DNA from: Escherichia coli
GTDB taxonomy: Bacteria > Pseudomonadota > Gammaproteobacteria > Enterobacterales > Enterobacteriaceae
Reading direction: 5' to 3' (one strand)
DNA: 64,000 nucleotides
Assembly: GCF_003018235.1 (NCBI RefSeq)
Contig: NZ_CP027437.1
Below, in pieces: positions 4,384 to 18,337 of the stretch (the first letter of the stretch is position 1; every line of letters begins with the position of its first letter). The notes under the pieces are model-generated. The model was not told where the DNA came from, ran no database searches, and worked only from the letters and a program-made list of their open reading frames with translations. The position numbers were made by a program, and so were the translations under genes.

Positions 4384-4413
4384 ATAAAAAAGGCAGATAA
4401 TTAATTATCTGCC
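4384..4413 (-). terminator. Rho-independent terminator downstream of the C-S lyase gene
   Basis: Perfect palindrome GGCAGATAATTAATTATCTGCC (4392-4413) followed on the minus strand by a U-run (A-run 4384-4391 on plus). Confidence 0.5.
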
Positions 4414-5605: not shown

Positions 5606-7177
5606 TTAAATTAAAGCTTCAAGGCCCGTTTTCACACTTTGAACTTGCGGGCCAATAATTACCTGCACACTGTGAGCATCCAGTACAACCACCGACAGGG
5701 CACCTGCATTCTTTAACGTGGCTTGATCCACTTTCGACATATCTTTCACCACCAAACGTAAACGAGTAATACAGTTATCCAGTGAATCAATATTTTCTTT
5801 TCCGCCAAGCGCACTCAAAATCACAGCATGATCATATTTAGATTTGCCTCGTGCTTTTGAATTTGCTGCAACAGCCTGTGCTGCATCCTCAGATGAGTCT
5901 TCACGGCCTGGGGTTTTAATATCATGCTTAAGGATGTACCAACGGAAAACAAAGAAATAAATAGCAAACCAAACAATACCCACCGGAAGTATTAAATACC
6001 ATTTAGTAGAAGTACCCTGCATGATACCAAATATTAATAAATCCAAAATCCCGCCATCAGTATTACCGATAGTCACGCCCAGGATTGCCATAACCATTAA
6101 GGCCAGACCGGACATGATAATATGGAATATATACAACGCAGGAGCAATAAAGAGGAATAAAAACTCAATTGGTTCAGAAATGCCAGTAACAACAGATACT
6201 AATACGCCTGAAAGCAGTAAGCCTTTAATTACAGGACGATTTTCTGGTTTGGCTGTACGATAAATTGCGTAAGCCACAGCAGGCAAACCAAACATAAAGG
6301 TTGGCATAAAGCCTTGGGATAAAAACGCAGTAACATGTGGGCTAAAGGGAAGACCGGCTTTTAATTCTGCATAGAAAATATTGAGTGCTCCGGCAACTTC
6401 ATGACCGTCGACAATTTCTGTACCGCCCGCAGGTGTGAAGCGAACCATTGCAAGCAAGATATGATGTAGCCCGAAAGGCTTAAGCAAAAGCACACCAACG
6501 CCATAAAGGAACGGGCCGAATACGCTGGTACTTTGAATAATGTGGCCAATACCAGCAATACCCATTGCAACATAGGTCCAGAGCAAAGGAATGGCCTGGC
6601 CTACTAATGATAATGTTAGCGAAGTGATGATGGGTACGAAGCGGATACCGCTAAAGAAGGCAAAGGCATCATGTAATACAGTATCCTGAAAACGTTCGTG
6701 GAGAAAATAAGTTATTACCCCGGCGATGATGCCACCTAAAACGCCCATCTCTAAGGTTTGAATACCTAATACTACAGATTGACCAACCTGCTTCATCGTG
6801 GCAGCATCGGCAAGTTGATGGGTAACAGTGAGATAATAATTAATACTCATGTTCATTAGCATATAGCCAACAAAACCTGAATATGCGCCTACTGCTTTAT
6901 TTCTCTTTGCCATTCCTAATGGAATTGCAATAGCAAACATAACAGGTAGATAAGTAAATGCAAAGCCACCTACCATTGCAATAAAGCCAAATGTAAGTTG
7001 GGTAAGCTCACCACCTAAAAAGGGGAAGTTATTAATTGTTGAGGGGCTGGTTACTGAACTACCTATACCTAACAGAAGTCCCATAAAAGCGAGTAATGAT
7101 ACTGGGAACATAAATGTTTTCCCTAAACTTTGGAAAAACTCCCAGACCCGTGACTTTATAGACTTTTCCTGTGTCAT
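5606..7177 (-). CDS. PTS glucose/maltose-family EIICB component (MalX-like)
   Basis: 523-aa ORF; membrane EIIC domain followed by EIIB domain with the conserved phospho-cysteine motif NCITRLR; AAGGAG RBS; resembles MalX/PtsG. Confidence 0.85.
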   Translation of the reverse strand: MTQEKSIKSRVWEFFQSLGKTFMFPVSLLAFMGLLLGIGSSVTSPSTINNFPFLGGELTQLTFGFIAMVGGFAFTYLPVMFAIAIPLGMAKRNKAVGAYSGFVGYMLMNMSINYYLTVTHQLADAATMKQVGQSVVLGIQTLEMGVLGGIIAGVITYFLHERFQDTVLHDAFAFFSGIRFVPIITSLTLSLVGQAIPLLWTYVAMGIAGIGHIIQSTSVFGPFLYGVGVLLLKPFGLHHILLAMVRFTPAGGTEIVDGHEVAGALNIFYAELKAGLPFSPHVTAFLSQGFMPTFMFGLPAVAYAIYRTAKPENRPVIKGLLLSGVLVSVVTGISEPIEFLFLFIAPALYIFHIIMSGLALMVMAILGVTIGNTDGGILDLLIFGIMQGTSTKWYLILPVGIVWFAIYFFVFRWYILKHDIKTPGREDSSEDAAQAVAANSKARGKSKYDHAVILSALGGKENIDSLDNCITRLRLVVKDMSKVDQATLKNAGALSVVVLDAHSVQVIIGPQVQSVKTGLEALI

Positions 7178-14953: not shown

Positions 14954-15763
14954 ATGAGTAATACCGACGCTTCAGGCGAGAAGCGAGTGACAGGCACCAG
15001 TGAGCGACGAGAGCAGATCATTCAACGCCTGCGCCAGCAAGGAAGTGTGCAGGTTAACGATCTGTCGGCATTGTATGGCGTATCTACTGTGACGATCCGC
15101 AACGATCTGGCGTTTCTGGAAAAGCAGGGGATCGCTGTGCGTGCCTATGGCGGCGCGTTGATCTGCGATAGCACGACGCCGTCAGTCGAGCCATCAGTGG
15201 AAGATAAAAGCGCGCTGAACACCGCAATGAAACGCAGCGTTGCGAAAGCTGCCGTTGAGTTGATTCAGCCAGGTCATCGGGTAATCCTCGATTCCGGGAC
15301 CACCACTTTTGAGATTGCTCGTCTGATGCGCAAGCACACTGACGTAATTGCGATGACCAACGGTATGAACGTGGCTAATGCGTTGCTGGAAGCGGAAGGC
15401 GTTGAGCTGCTGATGACCGGCGGGCATTTGCGCCGTCAGTCGCAATCTTTTTACGGCGATCAGGCTGAACAATCGCTGCAAAATTACCACTTCGATATGC
15501 TGTTTCTTGGCGTAGATGCGATCGATCTGGAGCGCGGCGTCAGCACGCATAATGAAGATGAAGCCCGTTTAAACCGTCGGATGTGCGAAGTTGCGGAACG
15601 GATCATCGTGGTCACCGATTCCAGTAAGTTCAATCGTTCCAGTTTACATAAGATCATTGATACTCAACGTATCGACATGATCATTGTTGATGAAGGCATT
15701 CCTGCGGATAGTCTGGAAGGACTGCGAAAGGCTGGGGTTGAAGTGATTCTGGTCGGGGAGTGA
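14954..15763 (+). CDS. agaR: DeoR-family repressor of the aga regulon AgaR
   Basis: 269-aa ORF with N-terminal HTH and C-terminal DeoR sugar-binding domain. Confidence 0.9.
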
Positions 15764-15817
15764 GAAAGGGTGCCCGCTGGTCAACACGAATGCGTTCGGC
15801 GGGCATTGTGAACACCA

Positions 15818-16282
15818 TCAATGGGTTTCTTCTGTCTCTCGGGTGAGGGTTTCCCAGTCGGCAGGAGGATGTCCTCTTTTTAACATTTTGCTGAATACGG
15901 TATAGGCATCTGTTTTTTTACCGTAGGTGCGCAGAGTGTTTTCATCGTTCATCCATCCCAGAATGATGACTTTCTCTTTTTCACTATAACGAAAGAAGAG
16001 ACGATAACGACCAGCACCAAATTTTACCCGTGACCAGTCTTTATTTTTCCCAGAGCCTAACGACTTGCCATGACGGAATGCCGGTGATGATGGATTGACC
16101 GTGATATGCTCCTCAATCACTTTATGGACTACCGCCAATAACTTTGTGGCGGCTTTTCTCTGATAATTTTCAGGATCTTTTCCCTTTAATATCTCGACTT
16201 CGGCAACTAAAGCGTCGTAGGTTTCCTGAAAACAGGGATGAGCATATAGCGCCCAACCATTAACCCTTTGTGGAAAATCCAT
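15818..16282 (-). CDS. yhaV: Type II toxin YhaV (ribosome-dependent mRNA interferase)
   Basis: 154-aa ORF MDFPQRVNGWALYAHPCFQETYDALVAEVE...; overlaps prlF stop by 1 nt. Confidence 0.9.
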   Translation of the reverse strand: MDFPQRVNGWALYAHPCFQETYDALVAEVEILKGKDPENYQRKAATKLLAVVHKVIEEHITVNPSSPAFRHGKSLGSGKNKDWSRVKFGAGRYRLFFRYSEKEKVIILGWMNDENTLRTYGKKTDAYTVFSKMLKRGHPPADWETLTRETEETH

Positions 16283-16617
16283 TATTCGTCGTCGCCAATC
16301 TCATCATCAATGTTGACGTCCAGGCCAGCGACCAGTTTCTTTCCTTGCTGAATGTTGAATGGACGAGTTTTTTGCGGGTTGTTCTGGATATCTGCATCCA
16401 GAAAACGCAAAAATGCATTCATGGTATGATCCTCCTGTTCATCTCCCAGTCGGCACATAAATACTTGCCCACCAGGCAGAATTTCGTAATGAATGCTGTC
16501 CTGGCCTGGCTTCAGTTTTAAGGCCTCACGCACTGGCGCGGGGATAGTTGTTTGTCCGCGTATCGTGACCTTTGATTCAGTGGTCAGTACAGCGTGAGAG
16601 CGAGCATTAGCGGGCAT
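16282..16617 (-). CDS. prlF: Antitoxin PrlF (SohA), AbrB/SpoVT-fold DNA-binding
   Basis: 111-aa ORF MPANARSHAVLTTESKVTIRGQTTIPAPVREAL..., acidic C-terminal tail. Confidence 0.9.
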   Translation of the reverse strand: MPANARSHAVLTTESKVTIRGQTTIPAPVREALKLKPGQDSIHYEILPGGQVFMCRLGDEQEDHTMNAFLRFLDADIQNNPQKTRPFNIQQGKKLVAGLDVNIDDEIGDDE

Positions 16618-16673
16618 GATTCACTGTCCTTTTACAGCCTGTTTTCTGCTCAAATTATAAGCTTGAACTAAGG

Positions 16674-16689
16674 TAATGCAAATGCATTA
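16674..16689. promoter_or_regulatory. Perfect 16-bp palindrome in prlF promoter (candidate PrlF-YhaV operator)
   Basis: TAATGCAAATGCATTA, 57-72 nt upstream of prlF ATG. Confidence 0.35.
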
Positions 16690-16716
16690 TTAATGGACGT
16701 GGGGACTTTAAACAAT

Positions 16717-16743
16717 AAAAACATGGCACTAAGGCCATGTTTT
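16717..16743 (-). terminator. Rho-independent terminator downstream of garD
   Basis: Hairpin AAAACATGGCC-ttagt-GCCATGTTTT followed by U-rich tract on minus strand. Confidence 0.5.
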
Positions 16744-16765: not shown

Positions 16766-18337
16766 TCAGGTCACCGGTGCCGGGTTAAACACCGCCAGCT
16801 GGTTATGCAGTCCCCATTGATCTGAGAAGGTTTTCTTCTTCCCGCTGGCGACGTCGAGAATAAAGTGGAACAACTTCCAGCCCACCTCTTCAATAGTTTC
16901 TTCGCCAGTAGCGATGGTGCCCGCATTAATATCCATTAAATCAAACCAGCGGTTCGCCAGCTCGGTGCGGGTCGCCATTTTAATGACGGGTACCGCCATC
17001 AGGCCGTACGGCGTACCGCGACCGGTCGTAAACACTTGCACGGTAATCCCTGAAGCCACCTGTTGTGTGCCACAGACAAAATCGCTGGCTGGCGTCGCGG
17101 CGTAAATTAATCCGCGTTTAGTCGGGCGTTGACCGGGCGACAGCACTTCAACAATTGCACTTTTACCCGATTTAGCAATGGAGCCGAGCGCTTTCTCCAC
17201 CACGTTTGCCAGACCGCCTTTCTTGTTGCCCGGCGAAGGGTTGGCGCTGCGGTCGGTTTTTCCCATATTGAGATAGTTATCGTACCACTCCATCTCCTCC
17301 AGCAGCCGTTTGCCGACCTCTTTGTTCACTGCGCGTGGTGTCAGCAGATGGATCGCGTCACGCACTTCCGTGACTTCTGAAAACATCACCGTTGCGCCGC
17401 AGCGCACCAGTAGATCAGACGCATACCCAACCGCCGGGTTTGCCGTTACGCCAGAAAACGCATCGCTGCCGCCGCACTGCATGCCGACAACCAGTTCTGA
17501 AGCCGGACAGGTTTCTCGCTGCCGTTGATTCAGTTTGTGCAAATGGCGTTCGGCGACCTGCAAAATATCCTCGACCATGGACTGAAAGCCGACATGCTTT
17601 TCATCCTGCAAACTGACAATGCTGGCGCTTTCTACTGGAATAGCTTGCACATCATCTGTTCCAGTCAGCAGGCGCTCAGGCTGCAACTTTTCACAACCCA
17701 GACCAATCACCATTACTTCGCCGCCAAAGTTAGGGTTCAGCGAAATATTGTGGATGGTACGAATAGGCACAACTGCCGCCGGTGCGTTAATCGCCACGCC
17801 ACAGCCGTACAAATGATTCAGCCCCACCACGCCATCGACGTTCGGGTATTTCGGTAGCAGATCGCGTTCAATGATTTTTACTACATAGTCCACCACGCCT
17901 GCCACACAGTGGACGCTGGTGGTGATGCCGAGCAGGTTTTTGGTGCCCACGCTGCCATCGGCATTGCGATAGCCCTCAAAGGTGTATCCTTCCAGTGGCG
18001 GTAAGGGTTCCGGGACTTTGGTTGCCAGTGGCAGCGTGTGTAACGGTGGCGCTTCCGGTAGCACAACCATTGATTCGTCGATCCAGCTTCCGCGTGGGAT
18101 TGCGCGCACGGCGTAACCAATCACTTCGCCATAACGAATAATTTCACCATTAGCCGGAATGTCCAGCAATGCGACTTTATGCCCCTGGGGAATATGTTCA
18201 ATTAATTCCAGCCCATCCGGAAAACGCGTTCCTGCTTTCAGGCCATTATCATTAACAATAATTGCCACATTATCTGTGTCGTGAACTTTTATATAAAACG
18301 CAGTTGGCGTTTCTTGTCTGATTTCGATGTTGGCCAT
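16766..18337 (-). CDS. garD: Galactarate dehydratase GarD
   Basis: 523-aa [29 protein letters not shown]...; altronate/galactarate dehydratase (SAF + UxaA) family. Confidence 0.9.

Follow-up and report, generated by a model that had tools for sequence, protein, structure and literature searches.

The closest described counterparts of the operon considered here are mazEF, the VapBC/FitAB-type systems and prlF-yhaV of Escherichia coli K-12 itself. In mazEF, an antitoxin-first operon, MazE enters the major groove of its promoter DNA by means of a swapped-hairpin N-terminal domain, and negative autoregulation is strengthened by binding of the toxin (Zorzini et al. 2015, PMC4333400). In VapBC/FitAB-type pairs (PMC8138530) promoter and operator overlap, the operator being an inverted repeat for which the antitoxin has a higher affinity when the toxin is bound. 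The prlF-yhaV operon resembles both systems in the features mentioned. It departs from mazEF in that the partner of PrlF is a member of the RelE superfamily rather than MazF, in that PrlF and YhaV are reported to assemble as PrlF2-YhaV4, the corresponding mazEF complex being MazF2-MazE2-MazF2, and in that its probable operator is one compact 7-2-7 repeat, the sequence of which is kept across phyla. The difference from VapBC/FitAB lies in the fold of the toxin, which is PIN in those pairs and RelE-like in YhaV.

The E. coli operator is already known, autorepression of prlF-yhaV through a palindromic promoter sequence having been published in 2007. According to the account of Schmidt et al. 2007 (J Mol Biol 372:894) in the review PMC7781912, two PrlF2-YhaV4 hexamers bind cooperatively, as a pair, to a palindrome in the prlF promoter. 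YhaV is named as a co-repressor in the review PMC8138530, and PMC12107188 has PrlF and YhaV repressing the operon jointly; both of these publications likewise cite Schmidt et al. 2007. The last publication also reports strong derepression after a 7-bp duplication of the prlF1 type, confined to prlF and yhaV. For binding, the stoichiometry of the hexamer and co-repression we rely on this literature; our own analysis deals with the anatomy of the site, its overlap with the predicted promoter, the identity of the genes, the fold of PrlF and conservation throughout the family.

In the window, by which we mean the whole 64-kb stretch of E. coli DNA analysed, the locus has the K-12 order garD, prlF, yhaV, agaR, and there is no demonstrable difference from the K-12 operator. 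The galactarate dehydratase gene, garD, ends at 16766 on the minus strand and is followed on that strand by an intrinsic terminator (16718-16743; 10-bp stem, 6-nt loop and U-run; -12.4 kcal/mol, z = -4.0), which insulates the prlF promoter from garD read-through. Downstream on the minus strand are prlF (sohA; 16282-16617), specifying a 111-amino acid antitoxin (NF007429, PF15937) with a predicted N-terminal DNA-binding domain of the AbrB/SpoVT/MazE type, and yhaV (15818-16282), annotated in RefSeq and specifying a 154-amino acid toxin of the RelE superfamily (PF11663). The start of yhaV overlaps the stop codon of prlF (ATGA), and agaR (14954-15763, plus strand) is convergent. Membership of the PrlF and YhaV families was confirmed by profile scores: PrlF reaches 141 bits against a cut-off of 32 with PF15937 and 168 bits against 125 with NF007429, and YhaV reaches 180 bits against 35 with PF11663. 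Of the 5,426 complete E. coli genomes, 5,167 share a 221-nt stretch which includes the repeat and is annotated there as garD and prlF, and the intergenic sequence is 99.5% identical to that of K-12.

The original prediction had placed a perfect 16-bp palindrome within the interval 16618-16716 and read it as an autoregulatory operator. The window contains a single copy of the sequence in question, TAATGCAAATGCATTA (16674-16689, plus strand). It is not a perfect palindrome: the reverse complement is TAATGCATTTGCATTA, 14 of the 16 positions are self-complementary, and the AA/TT centre breaks the symmetry. The site is correctly described not as a perfect 16-mer but as a 7-2-7 repeat, with two perfect 7-bp arms, TAATGCA (16674-16680) and TGCATTA (16683-16689), parted by a non-symmetric AA (16681-16682). 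Its inverted-repeat symmetry is suited to the DNA-binding domain of a dimeric antitoxin. We enter it as an operator inverted repeat at 16674-16689, assigned to neither strand and read as TAATGCATTTGCATTA in the orientation of the gene, on the basis of its anatomy, its conservation and the literature on PrlF-YhaV binding. The distance given, 57-72 nt upstream of prlF, agrees with the position of the ATG (16617, minus strand), and the promoter is indeed AT-rich (35% GC in the region vs 51% in the whole window). Two further readings were considered and set aside. A direct repeat, AATGCA AATGCA, can be discerned in the site, but homologues with a CT or AG centre lose it while keeping the inverted symmetry; and a half-site-like sequence, TCCATTA, which abuts the operator on its upstream side and might have marked a second E. 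coli copy, is not conserved outside the garD context.

A consensus scan identified one strong sigma-70-like site for prlF, and no other. It consists of a predicted -35 hexamer TTTGCA (16677-16682, minus strand), which lies inside the operator, and a predicted -10 hexamer TATAAT (16654-16659, minus strand), which matches the consensus perfectly; the two are 17 nt apart and match the consensus at 10 of 12 positions. The operator can thus now be placed on the -35 hexamer, in a position where it overlaps the predicted promoter of an antitoxin-first bicistronic operon. Transcription of prlF would start near 16647, putting the operator at approximately -42 to -27. A Shine-Dalgarno-like AAGGA (16627-16631, minus strand), read from the sequence and conserved in the alignment described below, precedes the prlF ATG by 9 nt. 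The conserved prlF leader, CTGTAAAAGGACAGTGAA (16620-16640, minus strand), contains the sequences GTAAA and GTGAA approximately 6 nt apart, overlapping the Shine-Dalgarno region. It could conceivably be the site of the CpxR-dependent repression of prlF reported in one paper (PMC9600279).

Taken by itself the repeat is only marginally above chance and is weak evidence. Inverted repeats with a spacer of 0-4 and arms no shorter than 7 bp were present in approximately 4.7% of 99-nt regions simulated with a Markov-1 model of matching composition, and about 22 were counted in the 64-kb window. The significance of this particular site derives from its conservation across distant prlF-yhaV loci. The pattern TAATGCANNTGCATTA has one exact match in the window; a match with two mismatches at 6917-6932 was rejected, being located inside a 523-amino acid ORF and consistent with chance. 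Elsewhere in the window a perfect 22-bp palindrome, GGCAGATAATTAATTATCTGCC, is situated at 4392-4413, between a MalY/PatB-like gene, the stop codon of which it closely follows, and a PTS IIB gene. Just 32 of 5,426 complete E. coli genomes cover this stretch to at least 80%, and the surrounding part of the window is therefore an uncommon accessory region.

The garD-prlF intergenic region was aligned with those of K-12, two divergent E. coli, E. albertii, two Escherichia spp. and Pseudocitrobacter, the PrlF of which is 74-75% identical, together with two loci having unrelated upstream flanks (L003 and L026). The longest invariant block of the region, TAATAATGCATTTGCATTAC in gene orientation (16673-16692, minus strand), comprises the operator with 3 nt upstream and 1 nt downstream, and stays invariant even where the flanks are unrelated. 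Next in order of conservation are the -10 and Shine-Dalgarno regions, the -10 hexamer being invariant in all intact aligned loci and reading TCTAAT in L026, a deletion remnant. Homology between the different genomic contexts starts exactly at the invariant block, which indicates that the prlF-yhaV cassette carries its own operator. When Escherichia sp. MOD1-EC7003 (L003), Pseudocitrobacter (L006) and L026 are compared with positions 16690-16700 of the window, similarity begins right at TAATAATGCA, so that the conserved cassette has its upstream limit at the operator.

The remnant itself, from E. coli EC42405 (L026, NZ_CP043414.1, 1501-1600), has kept the operator, the promoter, the Shine-Dalgarno sequence and the 8-bp sequence ATGCCCGC, while the coding sequence of prlF-yhaV is gone. 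The 8-bp sequence occurs twice in the window, at the start of prlF (16610-16617) and 11 nt past the stop codon of yhaV (15799-15806), and the arrangement in EC42405 has the look of a deletion between two short direct repeats. In place of garD, a second agaR-like gene lies upstream in that genome. In two further loci prlF and the operator are kept and yhaV is apparently disrupted: Enterobacter sp. BIGb0383 (L005, 1836-2305) has only an 80-amino acid yhaV ORF, and the annotation of E. coli F8111-1SC3 (L027) records yhaV as a pseudogene that contains an internal stop.

Beyond the close relatives, a site of the form YAATGCA-NN-TGCATTR, which we call class A, is found upstream of prlF-yhaV pairs of the Gamma-, Beta- and Alphaproteobacteria and in a Deinococcota MAG, with PrlF proteins down to approximately 30% identical. 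The exact sequence TAATGCAWWTGCATTA is present in Pseudocitrobacter, in a Rhizobium MAG (PrlF 30% identical) and in the Deinococcota MAG (32-35%); in the two MAGs it lies 25-26 nt before the start codon and a Pfam-confirmed YhaV gene follows. Sites with one mismatch are carried by Enterobacter, by Pseudosulfitobacter, Phaeobacter, Dinoroseobacter, Ancylobacter, two Bradyrhizobium and Ralstonia, and by several plasmids, Pantoea and E. coli IncF plasmids having two tandem copies each, 17-18 bp apart, and a Citrobacter plasmid three, 18 bp apart. The tandem operators of these plasmid loci are at 631-682 (L014), 651-684 (L015) and 800-832 (L016). Those of the Citrobacter and E. coli IncF plasmids are 180-220 nt upstream of the annotated start codon, which implies a long leader or a misannotated start.

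Twenty of 21 non-Escherichia PrlF-YhaV loci have a site no more than 250 nt upstream, 14 being of class A and six of a second class (B) which is described below; the remaining locus, that of Roseivivax, has a variant with two mismatches. In approximately 63 kb used for comparison, 40.6 kb being the remaining DNA of these loci and 22 kb coming from control loci, no site of either class was found, and the rate expected by chance is approximately 1.5e-4 per locus. The site is inherited together with its cognate toxin and antitoxin genes across taxa and genomic contexts. A scan of viral contigs with the PrlF alignment returned one partial, uninformative locus. The class A motif is missing upstream of an orphan PrlF-like gene (L021), a PrlF-VapC pair (L024) and the AbrB-PIN pairs (L009-L013), and is therefore specific to PrlF-YhaV rather than general to antitoxins with the AbrB fold. 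Among class A sites there is almost no variation at positions 2-7 and 10-15, in contrast to the centre (positions 8-9), which is TT, AA, AT, CT or AG, and the orientation of AA/TT relative to the gene flips between loci. This variability explains the asymmetric centre of the E. coli site and makes it unimportant. In the non-enteric loci the site directly follows a TTGACA or TTGAAA -35 and its TTAC end is at the -10; its position relative to the promoter is therefore unlike that in E. coli, with the RNA polymerase region still overlapped.

These comparisons bear on whether the block could be kept only as core promoter DNA, that is as a -35 with AT-rich sequence upstream of it and with no repressor site at all. 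Such an explanation would account for the predicted -35 TTTGCA inside the block and for its extension by 3 nt into AT-rich sequence. We regard it as very improbable, however, as in the alphaproteobacterial, Ralstonia and Bradyrhizobium loci the repeat is flanked by a separate TTGACA -35 and the -10, two to three tandem copies are present on some plasmids, and symmetric conservation of the arms around a free centre is the signature of a site for a dimeric protein and not that of a sigma-70 hexamer.

A similarly slight probability attaches to the repeat being the site of another regulator rather than of PrlF-YhaV, the stress-response regulator CpxR being an example. The CpxR consensus is a direct repeat of GTAAA, which the repeat does not resemble. 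Although CpxR-dependent repression of prlF has been reported in one study (PMC9600279), the site travels with the cassettes, on plasmids and chromosomes, across phyla the host regulators of which are unrelated, homology between contexts begins exactly at the site, and the type of operator changes along with the PrlF clade. Least probable of all is a hairpin or terminator acting at the RNA level in garD read-through, or a chance palindrome in AT-rich DNA: a small hairpin can form (-5.2 kcal/mol, z = -2.6) and about 5% of the simulated AT-rich regions contain a similar repeat, but the stem is weak and without a U-tract, the terminator scan did not report it, there was no Rfam match at E ≤1, garD already has its proper terminator upstream (16718-16743), the site is upstream of the predicted prlF transcription start, the arms are invariant in sequence across homologues instead of showing compensatory, structure-preserving changes, and chance is excluded by conservation across phyla.

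E. coli PrlF falls just under the cut-offs of the AbrB-type models (19.7 vs 24.7 for PF04014 and 27.2 vs 28.3 for TIGR01439), while the homologues in L008, L022 and L024 pass them. A profile built from 14 PrlF proteins matches, over the N-terminal 40 residues or so, the AbrB-family structures 5itj, 5itm and 2l66 (E approximately 1e-4) and SpoVT 2w1t (E approximately 1e-3), AbrB/SpoVT matches overall ranging from approximately 1e-4 to 3e-3. In Foldseek searches with the AlphaFold model of the PrlF monomer (pLDDT 72.7) the top matches were SpoVT, AbrB-N and EcMazE, including the EcMazE-DNA complex, at probabilities of 0.96-1.00, and SpoVT superimposes on the model at 1.4 Å over 45 columns. A sequence search of solved structures revealed none for PrlF or YhaV. 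The profile and model comparisons thus point to an N-terminal domain of the AbrB/SpoVT/MazE type in PrlF.

The repeat is very probably the published operator through which PrlF-YhaV represses its own promoter, as the original prediction had proposed for PrlF as an AbrB/SpoVT-type antitoxin acting alone or with YhaV. This reading is supported by the genes and the fold, the overlap with the -35, the invariant block, the recurrence with YhaV pairs across phyla, and the literature. The earlier statement that PrlF-YhaV is known to bind its own promoter agrees with what the two reviews cited above relate of Schmidt et al. 2007 and of YhaV as co-repressor. We infer that the sequence bound in the published work is this 16-mer, because the promoter has no other inverted repeat with 7-bp arms and no other conserved block. 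A full-text search of the papers available found neither the 16-mer nor its core quoted, the sole match being an unrelated mammalian paper, and the Reg-Seq preprint, which has prlF and yhaV among its promoters, makes no mention of the site in its text or supplement.

Repression would most probably proceed as follows. PrlF would dimerise through its swapped-hairpin N-terminal domain of the AbrB/MazE type to form a DNA-binding module with two-fold symmetry. The bases recognized would be those of the 7-bp arms, TAATGCA and TGCATTA, the 2-bp centre serving as a spacer, and either one PrlF dimer would span both arms or each arm would take one dimer. YhaV, held on the C-terminus of PrlF, would act as co-repressor by building PrlF2-YhaV4 hexamers, a pair of which would bind the palindrome cooperatively. 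The operator contains the -35 hexamer, so that repression is most simply explained by the bound complex blocking RNA polymerase. Degradation of PrlF, or its mutation as in the prlF1 frameshift, would derepress the operon.

The second class of site, B, has the form GTAAGG-N6-CCTTAC and occupies the same promoter position as class A. It is carried by Acetobacter, Komagataeibacter, Novosphingobium, Thioalkalivibrio, the cyanobacterium Gloeocapsopsis and Thalassospira, the last in a looser version, GTAAG-N8-CTTAC. Both classes share an outer frame, (G)TAA...TTA(C). Only two columns of the PrlF alignment separate the classes perfectly, R20 and A27: at position 20 the 14 class A proteins all have R and the six class B proteins all have K, and at position 27 class A shows A, E or T where class B shows K or R. 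The conserved loop T-x-R-G-Q-T-T-I-P-A contains both residues. Profile alignment places I25-P26-A27 of PrlF on I17-P18-A19 of MazE, A19 being a base-contacting position, and Q22 and R30 of PrlF on R15 and R23 of AbrB. In the MazE-DNA model the side chains of W9, N11 and R16 and the backbone amide of A19 contact DNA (PMC4333400). By way of the shared x-G-(N/Q) motif, R20 of PrlF may correspond to W9 of MazE, and this loop is presumably part of the surface which reads the bases.

It is conceivable, though somewhat doubtful, that the PrlF-YhaV family has two types of operator and that the switch between them is set by two residues of the DNA-binding loop of PrlF. The class A proteins form a single clade with class B basal to it, so that a single evolutionary event, of low statistical weight, may lie behind the switch; for the same reason we do not offer the covariation of class and residue as statistical proof. 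A plasmid of Roseivivax marinus (L020) carries the operator TAATGGTTTTGCATTA at 824-839, with one arm degenerate. Its PrlF has K at position 20, as in class B, and A at position 27, as in class A, and the locus looks like a hybrid.

For the family as a whole, the operator is a signature by which prlF-yhaV promoters can be annotated. The two operator types and the two residues are a possible, modest extension of what is known, the reading of DNA by AbrB-type domains being poorly resolved. If real and unreported, they would provide a recognition code, simple and open to testing, for a transcription factor of the swapped-hairpin type.
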